Assembly (NCBI GenBank): GCA_016181465.1 | Contig: JACOZG010000021.1 | Coordinates: 1-53,257 of the forward strand | Length of the DNA: 53,257 nt | Origin: Candidatus Vogelbacteria bacterium | Lineage (GTDB): Bacteria > Patescibacteriota > Minisyncoccia > Phycocordibacterales > JACOZG01 | Reading direction: 5' to 3' | Part shown: positions 8,457 through 44,291 of the stretch, in pieces | Layout of the letters: each line of letters starts with the position of its first letter | How positions within the stretch are numbered: position 1 is the first letter of the stretch | Translations under genes and position numbers: made by a program | Notes under the pieces: model-generated | Told to the model about the DNA's origin: nothing | Databases searched by the model: none | Seen by the model: the letters and a program-made list of their open reading frames with translations, nothing else

Positions 8457-8536
8457 ATGACTAACTAATTGTATGTCTTATGACGACCAGTGTCAAAGGT
8501 AAAAATGGTTGGGCGAAATAAGATTCTGGCGCCGAA

Positions 8537-19617: not shown

Positions 19618-19689
19618 CTTAAATTATAACACGCGCCTAACACACCACCCCCTGACTTATCCACCACCAGAGTTACCGGCAAGACCGGC

Positions 19690-19702
19690 AAGGTTAAACC
19701 TC
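19690..19702 (-). repeat. REP-like hairpin overlapping the RAYT stop codon, inverted relative to the upstream copies
   Basis: The plus strand reads AAGGTTAAACCTC. The minus strand reads GAGGTTTAACCTTGCCGG, matching 17 of 18 positions of the TCAAGGTTTAACCTTGCCGG unit at 20473-20536. Confidence 0.7.
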
Positions 19703-20380
19703 GACAATAGCATCGTCAAAATTTATCCACAAGTTCAGAAAATCATCGAAATCTTTGCGACTTTGAAAATAATTTGGGAAATCATCTGGGGTAAGAATTT
19801 TATTGTGTGATCGCGGTAAACCAGTGTAATAGTGGTAACTTGAATACTCGTAACCGTTCAAAAATTCTTTTGCGGTCTCTTTATTTCTAATCGTCTTTCC
19901 TTCCCAATCTTTAGGGTCAACAGTTTTCACCGGATTGAGATGAATATATGCCAGAAGATAATTTAGATAACGATCATTGTCCACATGCTGGGCTTTGAAC
20001 GTACTTTCAAATAAACCGCCCGTCCGTTGGTATTTTTTATTAAAATACATCGAATAACCAGTTTGGAGCTTTTGCATCATGAGAGAAATACCCTTATCTT
20101 CTTTTTCTCTCACTAACAAGTGGAAGTGGTTTGGCATTAAGCAATAGGCGCCAACATCAACTAAACGTTCGTTCAAACTAATTGGAATCACGTTGAAAAT
20201 ATTTTCGACATTCTGTCCCGGCCAATCGCTGGGGTGAAATTGCTCTTTGCTGTTAGCGAGATAGAGCGATGCGAGAAATCTAATGTGATCACGATGATCA
20301 AGAAAGGTTTGGCGTTTGTCAAAACCGCGGTTGTAAAGATGATAATACTCACCCGGGGCAAAAGAGAATTTCCTGGTCAT
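19694..20380 (-). CDS. REP-associated tyrosine transposase (RAYT; IS200/IS605-type Y1 HUH transposase family)
   Basis: 228 aa. It has YHLYNRG near the N-terminus, the HUH motif LMPNHFHLL, and the catalytic Tyr region YLLAYIHLNPVK. It is a single gene flanked by inverted REP-like hairpins. Confidence 0.85.
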   Translation of the reverse strand: MTRKFSFAPGEYYHLYNRGFDKRQTFLDHRDHIRFLASLYLANSKEQFHPSDWPGQNVENIFNVIPISLNERLVDVGAYCLMPNHFHLLVREKEDKGISLMMQKLQTGYSMYFNKKYQRTGGLFESTFKAQHVDNDRYLNYLLAYIHLNPVKTVDPKDWEGKTIRNKETAKEFLNGYEYSSYHYYTGLPRSHNKILTPDDFPNYFQSRKDFDDFLNLWINFDDAIVEV

Positions 20381-20407
20381 TAAGTTTCAGTTTAATTCCA
20401 TTGCTAT

Positions 20408-20536
20408 CTTATGTCAAGGTTTAACCTTGCCAAAACCACGGTAAAGAAAAACCGGCATTTTTGCCGGAATCTCTTATGTCAAGGTTTAACCTTGCCGGAG
20501 GCTACTTATGTCAAGGTTTAACCTTGCCGGAGGCTA
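20408..20536 (+). repeat. Three REP-like units CTTATGTCAAGGTTTAACCTTGCC; the last two form an exact 32-bp tandem
   Basis: Units lie at 20408-20431, 20473-20496 and 20505-20528. Segments 20473-20504 and 20505-20536 are identical (CTTATGTCAAGGTTTAACCTTGCCGGAGGCTA). Confidence 0.85.
20443..20467 (-). terminator. Intrinsic terminator after pilA, embedded between REP units
   Basis: The minus strand reads CCGGCA-aaaa-TGCCGG followed by TTTTTCTTT. Confidence 0.6.
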
Positions 20537-36931: not shown

Positions 36932-37046
36932 GGAACACTGTGGAGCCTGTCCGCCTCTGGTGGGGATGTGGGAACTATGCTGGAGGGGATTTATGTACCA
37001 GTTCTAGTGTAAAGAAACCCGCCGAGTTTAGATCAACGACGGGTTC
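36932..37046. repeat. Conserved module R1, copy 1 (includes a minus-strand terminator hairpin)
   Basis: GGAACACTGTGG..GGATGTGGGAACTATGCTGGAGGGG.TTTA....CC.GTTCT.GT.T.AA.AAACCCGC..loop..CGGGTTC aligns with 39792-39883. Copy 1 carries an 18-nt insertion. Confidence 0.7.
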
Positions 37047-37073: not shown

Positions 37074-37604
37074 TTATGGTGAAGAATTGTCATGCACGAT
37101 CAATTCTATGCCGCCCGTGGTCAAAACGACGAAGTTGTCGTGCGGCTGGATCACGAAGGAGTACACGGCCCTACCCCATTCTTTGGTCTCGATCTTAAGA
37201 ATCTTGAATTCGCCAACCGCTGATCTGGCCTTGACCTTACCGGTCCGAATCCACCCCTTCTCTGAACCGCCATAGAGACGTTGGCTGGGCGAGCAAGTAA
37301 TGCTGCCGCCGCGGAGAAAAGTGATTATCCTCAACTCTGGTTCTGATCCGACATCGACACGGGTGATTTGGCCAACGACCAGTTGTTTGGCCCCATAGTC
37401 ATAACAGTAAACATGGTCATTTGTTTTGAGACCCTCAATCGCTACGCGACCAGCCGGAGTATGAACCAAAGTACCAACCGGGAAACAATTATGACCACCA
37501 CTGCTGTGGAAAGAATCAAACTTAGATCCTCCACCACCCCCAAACAACGACCCCAGAATCCACAACACAACCACTATTCCGATAATCCACCACCACATAG
37601 GCAT
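37074..37604 (-). CDS. Membrane-anchored stand-alone Hint (intein/BIL-like) domain protein
   Basis: The start is set at ATG 37604 because a TTGACA-N17-TAATCT promoter lies inside the longer ORF. It has one TM helix (WWWIIGIVVVLWILGSLF) and a Gly-rich linker. The Hint block A is CFPVGTLVHTPAGRVAIEGL, and the C-terminal blocks are NFVVLTTGGIELIVHDN|SSP. Confidence 0.7.
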   Translation of the reverse strand: MPMWWWIIGIVVVLWILGSLFGGGGGSKFDSFHSSGGHNCFPVGTLVHTPAGRVAIEGLKTNDHVYCYDYGAKQLVVGQITRVDVGSEPELRIITFLRGGSITCSPSQRLYGGSEKGWIRTGKVKARSAVGEFKILKIETKEWGRAVYSFVIQPHDNFVVLTTGGIELIVHDNSSP

Positions 37605-37650
37605 CTCCCTTTCAAAAAACCAGTAGACCGTATGTCCTAAACTACTTTTT

Positions 37651-37679
37651 AGATTACTCGCAAAGTAGCGTGGTGTCAA
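37651..37679 (-). promoter_or_regulatory. Sigma70-type promoter of the Hint-domain gene
   Basis: On the minus strand, TTGACA (37679-37674) is followed by a 17-nt spacer and TAATCT (37656-37651). Confidence 0.6.
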
Positions 37680-37886
37680 ACCAATATGACCCTAGCATCG
37701 AAAACAAAAAACTCCCCATTAGAGAAGTTCTTTGCTTGCCTCGCGTTGCCTAACGCAAAGTCGGGCAGATCGCCTGTGGATAAACTTGATTCCCATTTTC
37801 TTTTATGTATACTTAGAATGTCTTTCGGTTTTTTCGACCGGAAGGGCATAACATCCAAGAGCAACCCTCCGCGAGGAGGGTTGCTT

Positions 37887-38486
37887 TTATTTGTTTCCCC
37901 TTTCCTTGTCTAATTCTGCTCTGTGTTTCAATTCTTTTCCCCAAATCCCATCAACATTAAGAATGTCAGTGTATCCATCCGCCCCGGTCCTTAGTTCCTC
38001 AGACACATTATTCCTGGAAGAAAAAACAAAAACTCTTTTACCATGTTTCCTTAAATAAGTAATCAATGGAAGAAAATCGGAATCCCCCGTAAAGAAAACC
38101 GCCGTCCCGTATTTCTTTAGATGATGAAGTGAATCAATAGTAATTTCCACATCCATATTTCCTTTTTCTTCTACAATATTTCCTCGCTCGGTTAAGACGT
38201 TGATTCTCTTCAATTCCTTTTTTACAACAAAAATCCCCAGTCCCTTCTTAAGAAAAGTAAAGAATTTATGTTTACCATCTAAGCTGTACTTTCTTGTACC
38301 TTCTGCCGGATACGCAGTATAGTAAAACACTTTAATTGAAGTTCCATTAAACTTTTGCTTGATATATTCAGTTGTCTTAGCGTAATCCAAAAATTTACTT
38401 TTCGTTTTCTGCGCCGCCCATAAATTAGAGGCATCTATAAAAACATAAATCATACCCGCCTTTTGCTCGACCGGAGATTGTTCCAT
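37887..38486 (-). CDS. NYN-domain (LabA-like) protein, putative RNase
   Basis: Matching segments are ..VFIDASNLW.., ..KGNMDVEITIDSL.. and ..AVFFTGDSDFLPLITYLRKHGKRVFVFS... The alternative start is M12 (ATG 38453). Confidence 0.75.
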   Translation of the reverse strand: MEQSPVEQKAGMIYVFIDASNLWAAQKTKSKFLDYAKTTEYIKQKFNGTSIKVFYYTAYPAEGTRKYSLDGKHKFFTFLKKGLGIFVVKKELKRINVLTERGNIVEEKGNMDVEITIDSLHHLKKYGTAVFFTGDSDFLPLITYLRKHGKRVFVFSSRNNVSEELRTGADGYTDILNVDGIWGKELKHRAELDKERGNK

Positions 38487-38528: not shown

Positions 38529-38540
38529 GGGAATCGGTCA
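38529..38540. repeat. att-like 12-mer GGGAATCGGTCA (copy c)
   Basis: Identical to 39643-39654 and 11 of 12 identical to 40941-40952. GGGAATCG is part of the tmRNA 3' end. Confidence 0.6.
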
Positions 38541-38585
38541 GGTGTTCTCCACTTGCACAATTTGGATACCGGATTTGGTTGGGAA
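38538..38585 (-). pseudogene. Remnant of a GIY-YIG gene 3' end
   Basis: The minus strand ..AAATTGTGCAAGTGGAGAACACCTGA (..QIVQVENT*) parallels the intact gene end ..AAATTGTTCGAATGGCGACGAGTGGAGAACGTCTGA (..KLFEWRRVENV*). The same att-like 12-mer follows both. Confidence 0.45.
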
Positions 38586-38620
38586 ATAAAAGAAAGACCG
38601 CCGGGCGAACCATGCGGTCT
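38584..38620 (-). terminator. Intrinsic terminator
   Basis: The minus strand reads AGACCGC-atggttcgcccg-GCGGTCT followed by TTCTTTTATTT. Confidence 0.65.
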
Positions 38621-38852
38621 TGATTAACAAAAAGGATCGGGGGTAGGACAGAGGCTTCCGCTCTAACTGGCCCGTCGGTCGAACGAGACTATGATCACTT
38701 GTCTCACGGCTCCCCGTTCTCAACTCTCCATTTTTGCCAGTCATTTCTGTGTCCTCACGCGCTGGCGCTTGTGAGTAGACGCCGAACGCCGAGCTTCTAG
38801 GAACATTAGTGTGCCCGCCCCCGACCATGGGAGATGATAACATTAAAAATGG

Positions 38853-38891
38853 CAAAAGAAAAAAGCCCCGTTGATACGATCGCTGGGGCTT
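38853..38891 (-). terminator. Intrinsic terminator after the 176-aa gene
   Basis: The minus strand reads AAGCCCC-agcgatcgtatcaac-GGGGCTT followed by TTTTTCTTTTG. Confidence 0.7.
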
Positions 38892-38957
38892 GGGATAATG
38901 AGGATTGAACGCGTTACTTCGTCTCGTTCAACTCCTTCCTCATTTGTTTTTTTCCTT

Positions 38958-39488
38958 TCACTTTCGTGCCTTGAGTTCTCTCAAGATCTCTTGCACTATT
39001 TTCTCGCTCTCGGCGCGGCGGATTTTCTCCGCTAACTCGTGGAGCTTCATCATCTCATTTAGTTTTTCGGTGATGAAAAGCGATCGGTCTAGGGGAGTAG
39101 ACATCATGACGGGCGATTCAAATCTCTCACCGATAGCAATGAGTTTTTCGATCACCAGCCAGAGCCCAAGCAGTCTGTCTTCCGCTGGCGCAATCTTTTC
39201 CAACCGCCCGCGCCGTCTTTGGACATTGTACATTGCCCGCAGGCGCCCCAACTGACCGCCATCGAGATAGAGGATGTAATCCACATCAGCCGTCTCGGTA
39301 TCCACAATCCCATTGACCACGAAGGGTAATTTGACTCCCTCCTCCTGGCCGTCCAAGGAAGCCACCAAAGTAAATTCGGTGGTGCGGGGGTTAAGGGGCC
39401 CTCGTTCACTGCGGAGACGAAGGGTATCAAACAGTTCCTCACGACTCGGTCCATTGATGATGTCGTACGACATCGGTTTGGTAGCCAT
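38958..39488 (-). CDS. Hypothetical protein (176 aa)
   Basis: A strong SD (AAGGAGGTGGCCG ATG) is present, with its own promoter, a leader of about 100 nt and two downstream hairpins. No family was recognised. It is preferred over the overlapping ORF 39152..39655. Confidence 0.65.
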   Translation of the reverse strand: MATKPMSYDIINGPSREELFDTLRLRSERGPLNPRTTEFTLVASLDGQEEGVKLPFVVNGIVDTETADVDYILYLDGGQLGRLRAMYNVQRRRGRLEKIAPAEDRLLGLWLVIEKLIAIGERFESPVMMSTPLDRSLFITEKLNEMMKLHELAEKIRRAESEKIVQEILRELKARK

Positions 39489-39596
39489 CGGCCACCTCCT
39501 TTTGAAAGAACATTCTCTTGATTAGCGGAAAAGAATCCAAACCGCGTTGCTCTGACGAGCCACCCACCCGTACAGGCAGGAATTAACACCAACTTG

Positions 39597-39625
39597 ATGC
39601 TAGCATACCAATATAAATCTGTCAA
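39597..39625 (-). promoter_or_regulatory. Sigma70-type promoter of the 176-aa gene
   Basis: On the minus strand, TTGACA (39625-39620) is followed by a 17-nt spacer and TAGCAT (39602-39597). Confidence 0.6.
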
Positions 39626-39630
39626 ATAAA

Positions 39631-39650
39631 AATGGAGATGCCGGGAATCG
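39631..39650. repeat. Exact 20-nt duplicate of the tmRNA 3' end (distal att copy)
   Basis: AATGGAGATGCCGGGAATCG is identical to 41421-41440, which covers the last 18 nt of tmRNA plus 2 nt. Confidence 0.85.
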
Positions 39651-39754
39651 GTCACACATAATTTTCTGCTGAAAATTTGCGCGACCCCGCCTCACTCGCC
39701 TCCGCTCGTTCCGGCTTTCAATTCCCGCCGACATTCCATATCCCAAACGCGCAC

Positions 39755-39782
39755 AAAAAACTACCCATTAGGGTAGTTTTTT
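39755..39782. terminator. Bidirectional terminator hairpin
   Basis: AAAAAACTACCC-atta-GGGTAGTTTTTT. Confidence 0.7.
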
Positions 39783-39791
39783 GGTGGCGTT

Positions 39792-39883
39792 GGAGCACTG
39801 TGAAGGATGTGGGAACTATGCTGGAGGGGGTTTACATCCCGGTTCTGGTATGAAAAACCCGCACCCTGTGAGTGTGCGGGTTC
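39792..39883. repeat. Conserved module R1, copy 2 (includes a minus-strand terminator hairpin)
   Basis: It aligns with 36932-37046. The minus-strand hairpin ACCCGCAC..GTGCGGGT plus TTTTTC lies directly after the 158-aa gene. Confidence 0.7.
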
Positions 39884-39908
39884 GCAAGGCGAACCATGCG
39901 GTCTAGGA

Positions 39909-40385
39909 TCAATTTTCGGATCTAGATAGAACCCGGATAATCTCGATCAAGCGGCTTTGCAAATCCTTGAAGTGTTCAATCTGCCAGTGTTGATAAAGGC
40001 CTAAGACTTGGCCAACGTTCATCGAGTCGGCGTCTACTTCAAGTCCTAAACCCTTAAAGTAGCCGCAGAAGAAATCACGCAATCTGACCCACTGCTTAGC
40101 TGCCTCGATACGATCAAGGGCATCACGGAAGCTAATCTTTCGACGCGCTGCTAATCTCGTCTCTAGACTAGTCAACTCTTCGACTCGCGCCATGATCTCC
40201 GGTTCATATCTGATAATGATCTGACCGATAGCCTCGTTAGTTCGTTCCAGAGTTTCCAAAAGTCTGATGGAAATCTCACCCTTTGCCCGGACGAACTTGC
40301 TTAATTCCTTTCTGTAGGTCCCCGGTAATTGAGAAACGATAGCCGGTAAGTTTTGCAACAGAATCTGGCGACTTGTTCTACTCAC
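39909..40385 (-). CDS. Hypothetical helical protein (158 aa)
   Basis: It has a 4-nt overlap with the upstream membrane-protein gene. No motif was recognised. Confidence 0.6.
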   Translation of the reverse strand: MSRTSRQILLQNLPAIVSQLPGTYRKELSKFVRAKGEISIRLLETLERTNEAIGQIIIRYEPEIMARVEELTSLETRLAARRKISFRDALDRIEAAKQWVRLRDFFCGYFKGLGLEVDADSMNVGQVLGLYQHWQIEHFKDLQSRLIEIIRVLSRSEN

Positions 40386-40801
40386 GGTTTCACCTCCTTA
40401 CTTTTAAGAATTTTCTCCTCCGTCTTCCACAAGAATGGAATGGAACTGAACTTAAGGGTTGTTAGAATCAACCATATCACAGCGTAAAGAGGGCAGAAGA
40501 TCGGACCTAAAATCAGAATCCAAAACCATTCGCCCCAATCGCTGCTTAACCCAATCGAAATGAAAAACCAGATCACGCCAATCACAATCAGTCCTCGCTC
40601 TGACGCGATTAGAAGTGTACACGCGTAAAGAACGATCAAAAACCAACCGGTGATTATAATTGGCGCACGGCCGGTATTCGTTTTTAGGGATGAAATGCCT
40701 TGACCGAGGATGACGAATAGACCACCTAACGCCCATAGTCCAAAAAAGTAAAGAACATACCTCAATTCCCACAGTAATTCCATCAGTTTGTCCATATCCA
40801 C
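40382..40801 (-). CDS. Hypothetical 4-TM membrane protein (139 aa)
   Basis: It has four hydrophobic helices and its own TTGACA-N17-TAGCTT promoter. It is preferred over the overlapping frame 40452..40823. Confidence 0.6.
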   Translation of the reverse strand: MDMDKLMELLWELRYVLYFFGLWALGGLFVILGQGISSLKTNTGRAPIIITGWFLIVLYACTLLIASERGLIVIGVIWFFISIGLSSDWGEWFWILILGPIFCPLYAVIWLILTTLKFSSIPFLWKTEEKILKSKEVKP

Positions 40802-40866
40802 GAGTGTTTCCTTTCTTTTCCATTCTTCCCCTTGTTTACTGATTTTTAAAGATCTGAACCTTATTC

Positions 40867-40895
40867 AAGCTATTACTCATAGTATAGGTTGTCAA
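40867..40895 (-). promoter_or_regulatory. Sigma70-type promoter of the membrane/helical gene pair
   Basis: On the minus strand, TTGACA (40895-40890) is followed by a 17-nt spacer and TAGCTT (40872-40867). Confidence 0.55.
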
Positions 40896-40940
40896 TGGCC
40901 TGGGCCGGCAAGGGAAACTTAAGCATTATAATTGTGCATC

Positions 40941-40952
40941 GGGGATCGGTCA
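40941..40952. repeat. att-like 12-mer GGGGATCGGTCA (copy d) at the GIY-YIG stop codon
   Basis: 11 of 12 positions are identical to copies at 38529 and 39643. The TCA is the reverse complement of the GIY-YIG stop codon. Confidence 0.55.
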
Positions 40953-41261
40953 GACGTTCTCCACTCGTCGCCATTCGAACAATTTGGTAACTAGACCTTT
41001 TTGGTATTTATTAATCAAGTTTTCTTTCTTTTCCCGTCGCCATTTTTTGATTTGAATTTCTCTTTGGCGGGCTTCGGTTAATGTTGAATATTCCTCCAGA
41101 AATACGATTTTGAAATCCGGTTTGGATTTGGTGAACCTCGCGCCCCGTCTAGAGTTGTGGAAACCAACACGCTCTTCTGGATTCTCACTTATGCCAACAT
41201 ACAATTTGTTGGCGGAATTTTTAATCATGTAGACGAAGGGCATGAATAAATTATCTCTCAA
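40950..41261 (-). CDS. Short GIY-YIG nuclease family protein (YhbQ/URI-only type)
   Basis: About 100 aa with ..FVYMIKNSANKLYVGIS.NPEERV..HN......FT.......IV..E.......A...E.QIK.W.R.KK..LI. The alternative start is ATG 41243. Confidence 0.8.
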   Translation of the reverse strand: MRDNLFMPFVYMIKNSANKLYVGISENPEERVGFHNSRRGARFTKSKPDFKIVFLEEYSTLTEARQREIQIKKWRREKKENLINKYQKGLVTKLFEWRRVENV

Positions 41262-41422
41262 TTTTCATTCAAGACAAATAGCCCCTCGACTCTCGCCTGC
41301 GGTGAGCGCAGTCGAACCGCTCGGGACATTCGCCTCGTTCGCACGACAAAAACTCGATCCCTTGGTTTTGGTCGAGTGGTTTACCATGAGCGAGTCCCGA
41401 GTTTATCGAGGGGCGAGTCGAA

Positions 41423-41801
41423 TGGAGATGCCGGGAATCGAACCCGGGTGCAAGGAGGAAACAAAGGTGAGTCTACCGATCTAGCCGATTTTGAATTTTG
41501 ACCGAGAACCGTCGAAAACGGCAAAATCGCTTCTCGGCGAGTCTCTTGAGTTTCGGTTACTTAGTGAGACGCTAAATTCCCTATCCCGAAGATTATGACA
41601 CCCGTTATCCCCTATCGGAAGTCAGGAAAACGGACGCCGGTTTAAGCGTAAGCGAAAACCGGAGCAAAAGCGCGGGCGAACCCGTCCTTTACTTTAGAGA
41701 ATAAGTTGGCACTTATTCGATGGCTCGTTAGATTAGCGAGTTACGAGCGCGCTCGACCGGCACACATTTTTTTAAACTCCTTGTCTAGGCCGATCATCCC
41801 C
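41423..41801 (-). ncRNA. ssrA: tmRNA (SsrA)
   Basis: The 5' end is GGGGATGATCGGCCTAGACAAGG and the 3' end is ..GGGTTCGATTCCCGGCATCTCCA. The acceptor stem has G3:U70. An internal tag frame GCC AAC TTA ..GCT TAC GCT TAA (41710-41642) ends ..FAYA*. It lies next to smpB. Confidence 0.9.
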
Positions 41802-42330: not shown

Positions 42331-44229
42331 ATGGAATCGCCGCGTGGTAAAATCATCAACCAATTCAGCCGCCAGATCCTGGGGACGGTTTTTATCCTGA
42401 TGCTCCTCGTCAGTCTCTACGCTTTCTGGAGCGAAGAAGCGAACAAAACGTCGGAGATTTCGCTTTCGCAGTTGGCCGGCGAGATTAAGTCAGGCGCGGT
42501 CAAAGAAGTAACGGTGCAGGGCGACAGTTTAGAAATTAGCTACCAAGACGGGACGAACAGCCGATCACAGAAAGAAGTCGAAACATCGTTGTCCGAAACC
42601 CTGACTAATTACGGCGTTACCGCTGAAGAATTGAAGACCGTCAAACTCATGATTGAGAATCCCGGCGGCCTCGGCTTCTGGTTGCTCAATCTCCTACCCT
42701 TTGCCTTGCCGATTCTTCTCATCTTGTTCTTTGTCTGGATGATCTCGCGGCAAGTCCGGGGCGCCTCGATGCAGGCCTTTTCTTTCGGCCAATCCAAAGC
42801 CAGGATCATTGATCCCAATAACCAGCAGCAGAAAATCACTTTCAAGGATGTGGCCGGGGTCAAAGAAGCCAAGGAAGAACTGTTGGAGATCGTTGATTTC
42901 TTAAAAAATCCGAAAAAGTTTCTTGACATCGGGGCCAAAATCCCGAAAGGCGTGCTCTTGATGGGCGCGCCGGGGACGGGCAAAACTTTGTTGGCCCGAG
43001 CCGTGGCCGGCGAGGCCCAGGTGCCCTTCTTTTACCTCTCGGGTTCGGAATTCGTGGAAATGTTTGTCGGCGTCGGCGCCTCGCGCGTCCGCGATCTCTT
43101 CAAACTGGCGAAGAAGGCGGCGCCGTCAATCGTCTTCATTGACGAGATTGACGCCATCGGCCGGCACCGCGGTTCCGGGCTTGGCGGCGGCAACGACGAA
43201 CGGGAACAGACTCTGAACCAGATTTTGGTTGAGCTGGACGGTTTTGAACCGAATGAAAAATTAATCGTCATGGCGGCGACCAACCGGCCGGATGTGCTCG
43301 ATCCGGCCTTGCTCCGGCCCGGACGCTTTGATCGGCGAGTGGTGCTGGATAAGCCGGACATTAAGGACCGGGAAGAGATCCTGACGATTTACGCCAAGAA
43401 AAAACCCCTGGCCGAGGATGTCAATCTTCGCACCATCGCCGAACGGACCCCGGGCTTCTCCGGCGCCGATCTGGCCAATGTGATGAACGAGGCCGCGATT
43501 TTGGCGGCCCGCGAGAATCGTCAGCGCGTCAGCCAATACGACCTCATCCGGTCGGTGGAAAAGGTGATGCTGGGGCCCGAACGGCGAAGCCATATCCTCT
43601 CGGACAAAGAAAAGAAAATCACGGCTTACCACGAGATCGGCCACGCCCTTACGGCCTCGGTCCTGCCGCATTCTGACCCGGTGCATAAAGTCTCAATCAT
43701 TTCTCGCGGTCACGCCGCCGGCTACACCTTGAAGTTGCCGACCGAGGACCGGAAGCTTCAGTCGCGAAAAGAATTTTTGGACGATATCGCGGTTTCGCTG
43801 GCCGGCTACACGGCCGAGGAAATGATCTTCGGCGACATCACCACCGGCGCCGCGAGCGATATTGCCGTGGCTACAGCCCTCGCCCGCGATATGGTGACGA
43901 AGTACGGCATGAGCGACAAACTCGGTCCGGTGGCGCTTGACCTCGGCAGCCAGAAATTCTGGGGCGGTTACGGCACTTTGGCCGAGAAGTACTCATCCGA
44001 GGCCGTGTCAGCGGCGGTGGATCAAGAGGTAAGCCAAATAATGAACGAGGCTCGGGCGCGGGCCAAACAAATTTTGACTAACCAACGGGCGGCCCTTGAT
44101 GGTTTAGCCGCCGAACTGGTGCGTCTGGAAACGATCGAGCGCGAGGAGTTTGAAAAACTGCTGCTACTCCACGGCATCCAGCCGAAACTAAAGACCGAGG
44201 AGGCAAAGATCACGCCGCCGGGCATGTAG
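42331..44229 (+). CDS. ftsH: ATP-dependent zinc metalloprotease FtsH
   Basis: It has two N-terminal TM helices, AAA+ Walker A GAPGTGKT, Walker [10 protein letters not shown], an SRH segment and the zinc site HEIGHAL. Confidence 0.97.
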
Positions 44230-44291
44230 CTCAACGGCAGAGCAAGCGTCTTATACACGCTAGGTTCTTGGTTCAAATCCAAGCATGCCCA
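44220..44291 (+). tRNA. tRNA-Ile (anticodon UAU)
   Basis: GGGCATG-TA-GCTCAACGGCAGAGC-A-AGCGT-CTTATAC-ACGCT-AGGTT-CTTGG-TTCAAAT-CCAAG-CATGCCC-A. Loop positions 34-36 are TAT. The gene begins within the last codons of ftsH. Confidence 0.8.

Follow-up and report, generated by a model that had tools for sequence, protein, structure and literature searches.

A displaced copy of the ssrA 3' end in a Candidatus Vogelbacteria contig borders a short folded element that probably inserts into the T-loop of tRNA and tmRNA genes

Islands that carry an integrase classically land in transfer RNA (tRNA) and transfer-messenger RNA (tmRNA) genes, and free-standing GIY-YIG homing endonuclease genes also adjoin tRNA genes, segB of phage T4 being one example. 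The present study concerns the region downstream of ssrA, the tmRNA gene, in a contig of 53,257 nucleotides (nt) (JACOZG010000021.1, the whole of which is called the window here) from a metagenome-assembled genome (MAG) of Candidatus Vogelbacteria, and above all a short non-coding unit within it, element X. In the Islander paper (PMC4383910), islands at tRNA and tmRNA genes are defined by a regenerated target together with a displaced 3' fragment. A sequence-only reading of the window had taken a 20-nt repeat of the ssrA 3' end as the footprint of an insertion of this kind. That view stands in so far as the duplication is not due to chance and lies in the T-loop of ssrA, but the distal repeat, far from being an isolated att scar, constitutes the 3' arm of X. 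The distal copy is probably the target-derived flank of X, which would be a non-autonomous structured element inserting into the T-loop of tRNA and tmRNA genes.

The ssrA gene is intact and occupies 41423–41801 on the minus strand (ARAGORN; Rfam RF00023 at 41420–41801, 107.4 bits, full length); it specifies the tag peptide ANLFSKVKDGFARAFAPVFAYA, and the CCA end is not encoded. A search of the window found the 20-mer AATGGAGATGCCGGGAATCG exactly twice on the plus strand, at 39631–39650 and 41421–41440, with no further match there even when three mismatches were allowed, against a chance expectation of 0.03 and with none of 100 shuffles giving two or more matches. Copy 1 (41421–41440, minus strand), an exact 20-mer placed relative to the tmRNA, is the functional one and reads on the ssrA strand as CGATTCCCGGCATCTCCA followed by TT, that is, the last 18 nt of the gene from T-loop C56 to the discriminator A73, plus two trailer nucleotides. 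The two copies, their positions and this 18 + 2 nt composition had been correctly read from the sequence. Copy 2 (39631–39650, minus strand), identified by exact match and junction analysis, is the displaced ssrA 3' end; it begins directly after GTGAC and constitutes the 3' strand of helix P1 of X. The window sequence over 41452–37863 recurs at 100% identity in six independent Logan assemblies, so the arrangement is no assembly artefact. The gene smpB (41829–42272/42359, minus strand; Pfam SmpB, E 4e-51) lies directly upstream of ssrA, and a divergent ftsH (open reading frame (ORF) 42331–44229, identified from sequence) adjoins the pair.

Element X lies at 39651–39745 on the minus strand and is supported by a covariance model (R1), by its clear homology to units at two other loci (L050 and L079; compared loci carry L numbers here) and by its recurrence at a minimum of 120 metagenome loci. 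Together with copy 2 the window unit spans approximately 39745–39631, and the size of the element is about 90–115 nt. From 5' to 3' it consists of a 5' arm (TGGAATG..CGGGAATTGAAA, antisense to a tmRNA 3' end), P2a (GCC/GGC), a P2 hairpin, GAGGCGGGGUCGCG, a long P3 hairpin and GUGAC. The R1 seed held 50 sequences, 48 of them from other genomes and the remaining two being the window's own copy and that of L050; the model matches the window once in its 53 kb, at 39639–39727 on the minus strand (85.3 bits, E 3e-21). Metagenome contigs were scanned with the exact core pattern AAAATTTN{0,3}CGCGAYCCCGYCTC, which gave at least 120 loci with up to two copies per contig, so that X is short, non-coding and multi-copy. 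The consensus reads 5' arm, A, GYCGGA, P2 hairpin, GAGRCGGGGUCGCG, long P3 hairpin, GUGAC and 3' arm. Its four helices are supported by the 50-sequence alignment, in which 88% of cells are standard pairs. The covariation score is 0.36, compared with 0.14 in shuffles (none of 500 reached 0.36) and about 0.1 in slid controls; double changes occur at 19 of 31 pairs, and the GYC/GRC helix alternates between CG (38 sequences) and UA (10). A G.U pair at 62:97 is invariant in all 50 sequences, and the alignment holds 145 G.U pairs as against 43 A.C. Since the helices covary, one G.U pair is invariant and G.U outnumbers A.C, the alignment indicates that X is a folded single strand, RNA or single-stranded DNA, with the same polarity as the RNA gene upstream.

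No Rfam family accounts for this structure. Rfam 15, which includes self-cleaving ribozymes, Y RNA and tRNA-like elements, gave nothing overlapping X in the window at E ≤ 5 apart from two weak, sub-threshold matches to unrelated families (RNAI, E 0.29 and 2.2), and seven canonical X loci were without a match at E ≤ 1; nor did the literature searched contain a description of an X-like element. Within the loci anchored on SmpB that are described below, R1 also matches copies behind tRNA-Ser, tRNA-Ile and tmRNA genes. Variants linked to ssrA at six loci (L008, L027, L053, L011, L016 and L065) score below the R1 threshold, and their shared architecture and partial alignment suggest that they are homologous to the core family.

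The surroundings of X follow a rule. Among the 121 metagenome copies listed, 68 lie at most 260 nt downstream of a tRNA gene (15 amino-acid types) or tmRNA gene on the same strand, only two have a tRNA gene of opposite strand in that position, and 20 have too little upstream sequence for the context to be judged. A direct repeat of 12–36 nt flanks about 45 of the 106 copies that could be parsed. Its downstream copy starts directly after GTGAC and corresponds to T-loop C56 onward, while the gene's own functional 3' end makes up the upstream copy, which stops 13–112 nt before the X core; the right junction is thus fixed (after GTGAC, at T55|C56) and the left one variable. The repeat often runs on into the non-functional trailer (to totals of 32 nt in L228, 24 nt in L213 and 22 nt in L207), and one copy at a site other than a tRNA gene, the 3' end of a protein gene (L216/L269), is flanked by a 17-nt repeat. 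Outside the stretch that pairs with the 5' arm, the downstream copy is identical to the gene in some X copies and fully decayed in others. As a separate observation, an X behind ssrA in L028 (10998–11120) has a downstream copy broken by a 23-nt insertion directly after CGAT, and its T-stem reads CCCAC where the host has CCCAG.

The 5' arm of X is antisense to the target from T54 through the T-stem, over some 10–12 nt. The complementarity takes in both T residues that precede the insertion point, and the arm therefore extends across the target in its uninterrupted form. Past those 10–12 nt its sequence is often that of another tRNA's 3' end (L213, L256), and in the window its complement, TTCAATTCCCGCCGACATTCCA, is a better match to an L046-type tmRNA end than to the window's own. 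Both repeat copies, trailer included, are nevertheless of the host type where the 5' arm is of another tRNA or tmRNA type. This combination would fit a target duplication made by an element arriving from another locus better than recombination between attP and attB, and a replacement 3' end carried on attP appears hard to reconcile with it.

Comparison with relatives places the window in a wider pattern. The set comprised 80 SmpB-anchored loci from Patescibacteria genomes, a tmRNA being detectable in 57, which with the window makes 58. In 10 of these 58 (the window and nine others) the tmRNA 3' end recurs downstream of ssrA, the further copy always starting in the T-loop, and the other 48 show no such duplication. 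The second copy is found 174–230 nt downstream with no ORF between in six loci (L008, L011, L016, L027, L053 and L079), and at about 140 nt with one mismatch in L050; in L065 and L033, as in the window, there are ORFs between the repeat copies. The DNA in between has a common architecture of terminator, antisense 5' arm, conserved core and direct copy of the tmRNA 3' end, and longer duplicated units that include the terminator occur in L053 and L050. Only one of the window's nine tRNA and tmRNA genes (ARAGORN and R1) is accompanied by X.

Two loci hold X in tandem. In L297 the order is X, CGACCCCGCCATCTCCAC, terminator, X, CGACCCCGCCATCTCCAC, TCGACTTG...leader, GIY-YIG gene, and the displaced tmRNA end lying farthest out still precedes the same sequence as do intact ssrA genes in many genomes. 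Since the displaced end keeps the canonical downstream neighbour of ssrA, insertions in the T-loop would have moved the older end outward together with its flanking sequence. L277 likewise has two tandem copies, the inner repeat copy being intact and the outer one decayed. The serial insertion that had been proposed for the window, with each event pushing earlier cassettes outward, is therefore seen in L297 and L277, with X as its unit, but the three junctions of the window itself form no simple age series, because the copy nearest to ssrA is decayed and the outer 20-mer is perfect.

How such a structure might arise can be outlined from the fixed and variable features. X would insert in the orientation of the gene between T55 and C56 of the T-loop, and the insertion would duplicate the 3' part of the gene from C56 to a variable point at or beyond its 3' end, so that copy 1 keeps the gene whole and copy 2, the original 3' end, comes to lie beyond X. 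The 5' arm, antisense from T54 into the T-stem, would then pair with the downstream copy to form helix P1, beside a conserved three-helix core that ends in GUGAC. In the window, one insertion of X would have produced the 20-nt repeat, and the 1.6 kb that now separate ssrA from X (the GIY-YIG cassette with its leader, and two ORFans) would represent either a later insertion at the usual site of that cassette after X had arrived or cargo of a composite, the whole 1.77 kb having moved together with X. Mobility would be part of this account, as would target duplication in preference to att recombination and recognition at the level of RNA or of a single strand, with the 5' arm aiding the choice of target; the mobilising enzyme would have to act in trans. 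The fixed 3' junction, the variable 5' junction and the variable duplication resemble target-primed insertion, and the 5' arm resembles a guide. A more specific version, which we offer tentatively and consider less likely than not, is that X is a guide-bearing non-autonomous element whose 5' arm pairs across T54-T55|C56 and which enters through a single-stranded, probably RNA-templated, target-primed intermediate, duplicating the 3' end while the gene remains functional. If so, it would be an integrase-free, nucleic-acid-guided use of tRNA genes as safe harbours, with occasional cargo such as the GIY-YIG cassette possible.

Several observations weigh against insertion by X. No empty-site allele of any X-bearing locus (junction ...CATCTCCATT|TTTATTTGACAG) was recovered, and insertion is accordingly read from anatomy rather than observed. 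Empty sites were sought without success: exact-protein look-ups with SmpB (three alternative starts) gave no matches, those with the GIY-YIG protein and a neighbouring ORFan of 176 amino acids (aa), orf176, returned only contigs identical to the window, and the Logan contigs of the population all carry the same arrangement, their breaks falling at 41449/41452 and not at the 41450 expected where filled and empty sites branch. No reverse transcriptase, nuclease or transposase can be tied to X. The metagenome sample was picked by an exact core pattern, which biases the proportions drawn from it. Copies within one genome are divergent (L221 and L254, for example), with no sign of a recent burst, and the copies in 23S–5S spacers of several unrelated contigs have no obvious direct repeat; such copies, together with the deep conservation of the core, could mean that X serves the host in the processing of stable RNAs. 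The position of the GIY-YIG cassette between ssrA and X in the window requires a second event or a composite element, and the perfect 20-nt repeat could be maintained by gene conversion.

Concerning the Logan contigs, five of those from this population (L081–L086) start at 41449 or 41452, inside the T-arm of ssrA, and another end, that of L082, falls within the conserved X core at 39664. These ends look like branches of the assembly graph caused by sequence common to other community members (the tmRNA end and copies of X), not like an empty-site allele.

The main rival, which we regard as improbable but would take seriously, is that X is a host-beneficial cis-acting RNA of stable-RNA 3' trailers, serving in processing, stability or as a decoy, the duplication being kept by selection or gene conversion and the 3' strand of P1 mimicking a tRNA or tmRNA 3' end for its function without having been made by insertion. 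The high conservation and covariation of the core across very divergent lineages, the strict co-orientation with the upstream RNA gene, the lack of a mobilising protein linked to X, the divergence of copies within a genome and the presence of copies in 23S–5S spacers would all be natural for such an RNA. The spacer copies occur in seven loci (L178, L187, L192, L214, L217, L273 and L278), where X-core sequences lie between an apparent 23S 3' end and an apparent 5S 5' end, motifs that were read by eye; they suggest an insertion that became fixed long ago or, alternatively, a part in the processing of rRNA. A functional mimic would not, however, be expected to take in non-functional trailer nucleotides over lengths varying from 12 to 36 nt, and the unpaired part of the downstream copy, identical here and wholly decayed there, looks like neutral decay. 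The tandem arrays with an intact inner and a decayed outer copy speak against it as well, as do the repeat-flanked X at the 3' end of a protein gene and the patchy distribution of the element (at one of nine tRNA or tmRNA genes in the window, and with 48 of 58 ssrA loci lacking the duplication).

Somewhat less probable again is classic integrase-mediated integration, in which the segments would be island remnants without an integrase, similar to cis-mobilisable elements (CIMEs), and X a conserved arm of attP. A regenerated target and a displaced 3' fragment are what defines such islands in the Islander paper cited above (PMC4383910). The sites attL and attR would also be expected to share a fixed crossover boundary with a variable extent of identity. 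Downstream of ssrA the GC content is mosaic, which suggests that DNA was acquired, and integrase-bearing elements do use the ssrA site in this lineage, since a large serine recombinase gene, convergent with ssrA, abuts or overlaps its 3' end at four loci (L002 10765–12336, L003 4470–5534, L035 10030–11094 and L067 6937–7275). These proteins carry Resolvase, Recombinase and Zn_ribbon_recom domains, their reading frame enters the antisense of the tmRNA T-arm, and the far ends of the elements lie beyond their contigs; L002 and L003 are the nearest relatives of the window by SmpB and tmRNA. In the window, on the other hand, the absence of any tyrosine or serine recombinase that had been remarked upon was upheld for the 53-kb contig in Pfam scans of about 50 ORFs, which included all those of at least 300 aa except the FtsH ORF 42331–44229. 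The repeat-bounded segment contains no integrase, its ORFs being the GIY-YIG gene and two ORFans, and no protein family, recombinases and reverse transcriptases included, is recurrently linked to X within 2.5 kb on either side of the 121 listed copies; no reverse transcriptase turned up in the window scans or near X copies. Compensatory stems and an invariant G.U pair point to a folded single strand and not to protein-binding arm sites, the repeat identity reaches species-specific trailers with both copies of host type and a foreign 5' arm, and six independent remnants of about 200 nt with one architecture are unlikely to result from random deletion. To our knowledge, serine integrases do not create repeats of 12–36 nt.

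The window's only transposase-like match is a gene related to REP-associated tyrosine transposases (RAYT; REP, repetitive extragenic palindromic sequence) and to the Y1 transposases of IS200, at 19694–20380 on the minus strand, 20 kb away (Pfam Y1_Tnp, E 6.5e-10; NCBIfam REP_Tyr_transpos, E 2.8e-13, which does not reach the cutoff of that model). Around it stand four REP-like hairpins (GGCAAGGTTAAACCTTGAC), three upstream at 20413–20528 and one inverted at 19687, a classic RAYT/REP arrangement (19687–20528) that is embedded in a type IV pilus gene cluster. As a mobiliser of X it was rejected: its own hairpins are unrelated to X and homologues are present in only three loci. Viral contigs searched with the 18-mer gave 89 matches, but the 18-mer is too unspecific to inform.

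The GIY-YIG gene within the repeat-bounded segment had been thought possibly involved in mobilisation; that it mobilises the cassettes by homing and made the 20-mer duplication we consider very unlikely. The gene (40950–41243, minus strand; 97 aa; Pfam PF01541, E 1e-18) has 576 homologues at E ≤ 1e-10, typically of 88 aa and with a query coverage of about 91%, and the last nine or so codons of the window's copy are an atypical extension running into the TGAC-CGATCCCC junction. Between ssrA and the gene lies a structured leader of 177 nt (41244–41420, minus strand; typically about 140 nt elsewhere), recognised from homologous leaders in relatives (L024 4669–4810, L043 1736–1875, L296 2811–3000 by blastn, L299 2581–2757). 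It begins with TCGACTC 1–2 nt past the discriminator and has a domain CCCGAGCG...GAGTCGAGGGGC, a conserved motif CUCGCUCGUGGYAARCCAC, and a covarying long-range helix in which the last nucleotides of the RNA gene and the TCGACTY trailer pair with a segment just before CCCUGAGCG. The leader has no Rfam match and may be a new cis-regulatory or processing RNA. Gene and leader stand together 1–2 nt after the tmRNA 3' end in the window, L024, L043, L048, L296 (81% identity) and L302–L307, and behind tRNA-Val in L299–L301, and they are absent from L002, L003 and L019, which amounts to sporadic presence at one conserved site; they form an independent, widespread cassette, separate from X.

That the cassette favours one site, is missing from the nearest relative (L002), matches a PHROG homing endonuclease (E 4.6e-5) and ends, in both GIY-YIG 3' ends of the window, against TGAC + CGATYCCC as X does, could be read as signs of homing. 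Cassettes elsewhere were nevertheless found without a flanking repeat of the gene's 3' end, few of the 121 listed X copies are near GIY-YIG genes, and the 88–97-aa protein is a catalytic domain only (about 80 aa), with no separate DNA-binding domain recognisable by Pfam; homing by double-strand-break repair, as far as we know, does not duplicate its target. With so few co-occurrences the gene was also rejected as a general partner of X. Bracketing of the cassette by an X-like pair of arms was likewise considered and dropped, being weak in L296 and the window and not seen in L302, L024, L043, L048 or L299.

The shorter junction sequence GGGRATCGGTCA does occur at the three places where it had been noticed (38529, 39643 and 40941), 0.6 occurrences being expected with one mismatch allowed, and its fusion to GIY-YIG stop codons is likewise real. 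Junction J1 (40941–40952, minus strand; 12-mer match and alignment) consists of the GIY-YIG stop TGA, a C and CGATCCCC, which resembles a T-loop and T-stem and is decayed beyond 9 nt. The third site (38529–38588, minus strand) holds a 3' remnant of about 50–70 nt of a second, paralogous GIY-YIG gene with junction J3 (TGAC + CGATTCCC), identified by the repeat D10, alignment and the 12-mer match. The two GIY-YIG 3' ends share D10, a 25-nt repeat of 88% identity, so their paralogy would be the first explanation of the two shorter att-like copies. In L296 a comparable TCGATTCCCC lies some 75 nt after the GIY-YIG stop; other cassettes lack it. The sequence TGACCGATYCCC is indeed common to both GIY-YIG ends and the X junction. 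A second, distantly related small GIY-YIG gene was seen between smpB and ssrA in L001 (6386–6565) and L049 (3272–3508), followed there by tandem repeats of about 80 nt upstream of the tmRNA gene.

The contig stems from a MAG, and for that reason alone an origin of the repeat by chance or by chimeric assembly was also weighed. Nothing speaks for such an origin, and it can be set aside for practical purposes, as no shuffle of 100 gave two matches, six assemblies are identical and the same architecture recurs in many genomes.

Among the other features of the region, two ORFans in the repeat-bounded segment are possible cargo, a membrane protein of 133–139 aa (40382–40801, minus strand; from the ORF list, and called as a gene in L081–L086) and orf158, of 158 aa (39909–40385, minus strand; ORF list and Logan contigs). 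A third, orf176 (38958–39488, minus strand; ORF list), lies outside the segment, and none of the three has a match in Pfam, PHROG or NCBIfam. The spacer before X (39753–39904, minus strand), characterised by alignment and by a search for repeats and inverted repeats (I6), comprises the terminator hairpin of orf158 (39857–39881), the repeats D11b and D1b (39805–39860) and a bidirectional terminator hairpin, D2b (39753–39788), which directly precedes X, just as a terminator stands between ssrA and X in relatives. Beyond the cassettes lies a gene with an NYN domain (37887–38486, minus strand; Pfam NYN, E 1e-22), which by its composition profile (GC 0.34–0.40) is a compositionally foreign neighbour; an NYN gene is also found near ssrA and GIY-YIG in L296. 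Near it, at 37074–37679, is a Hint-domain protein (intein-like fold, weak Pfam match). A repeat of about 60 nt, D1 (82–84% identity), occurs in the window at 36964–37019 and 39805–39860 and in L001 at 8475–8536, each time directly after the terminator of an unrelated gene (Hint, orf158 and, in L001, a PALP gene). The repeat D2 is the terminator hairpin, at 37704–37739 and 39753–39788, and the order is D1-D2 at one window site and D2-Hint gene-D1 at the other. That D1 might be a decayed tmRNA 3' end was rejected, its best alignment score of 22 not being significant against a null 95th percentile of 23. A tRNA-Ile gene (anticodon TAT, 44220–44291) is kept beside ftsH, smpB and ssrA in many related loci (L001–L025 and others).

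Should X be mobile, it would point to a mode of insertion not recognised so far, dependent on an enzyme acting in trans and possibly guided by nucleic acid, and would be a source of plasticity in the tiny genomes of Patescibacteria; should it be a host RNA instead, it would be a new and abundant element of stable-RNA operons. Either way, island-finding tools would miscall short displaced tRNA and tmRNA 3' fragments as island ends, and the conserved core of X breaks metagenome assemblies beside tRNA genes.

Set beside known systems, the GIY-YIG cassette of the window resembles free-standing GIY-YIG homing genes in being small, sporadic and fixed at a site beside a tRNA-like gene, with a conserved leader; it differs in having only the catalytic domain of about 80 aa and in being cellular, not phage-borne, and homing leaves the 20-mer duplication unexplained. 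X itself invites comparison with miniature inverted-repeat transposable elements (MITEs) and other non-autonomous transposons, such as palindrome-associated transposable elements (PATEs) and the REP elements and bacterial interspersed mosaic elements (BIMEs) mobilised by Y1 HUH transposases. Like these it is short, non-coding, multi-copy and hairpin-rich, is flanked by a target duplication and would depend on a trans-acting enzyme, and a RAYT-like gene is present in the window. In contrast to MITEs, its duplication is long and variable (12–36 nt) with one fixed junction, not of fixed length, one half of its "terminal inverted repeat" belongs to the element (5' arm) and the other to the target (3' arm), and its copies are old and divergent, not near-identical. 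No autonomous transposase-encoding element with X ends was found within 2.5 kb on either side of X copies, whole genomes not having been searched. Nor does X match REP/RAYT systems or IS200/IS605-derived elements, as the RAYT hairpins of the window are unrelated to X and X has direct repeats; we know of no target duplication made by IS200/IS605 elements.

With target-primed retroelements, that is, short and long interspersed elements (SINEs and LINEs) and group II introns in retrohoming, X has in common a fixed 3' junction, a variable 5' junction and a duplication of variable length, besides a structured, RNA-like unit and orientation-specific insertion. As in the pairing of exon- and intron-binding sites (EBS/IBS) of group II introns, it bears sequence complementary to the target across the insertion point. 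Unlike them, it lacks a 3' tail and an obvious series of 5' truncations, and neither a reverse transcriptase nor an endonuclease can be paired with it; we are not aware of such retro-mobility in bacteria outside group II introns, diversity-generating retroelements (DGRs) and retrons.

In strategy there is a parallel with islands and prophages of the Islander type, which use tyrosine or serine integrases. There, too, insertion splits the gene in its 3' part, at the T-loop, the gene is regenerated and the displaced fragment becomes the direct repeat at the far end; tandem arrays arise by repeated use of a site, and ssrA is a target, occupied by a serine recombinase in L002 and L003. X is unlike them in measuring about 90–115 nt, in being non-coding with no integrase in cis, and in its covarying, single-stranded fold; its repeat identity enters local trailers with both copies of host type, and one core serves many tRNA species. 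X would be a variation on a known strategy, that of inserting into a tRNA gene and regenerating it, and there is a substantial chance that its mechanism is new. The gene-preserving strategy of islands appears here in a folded, protein-less element of about 100 nt that is widespread in Patescibacteria and matches no Rfam family.

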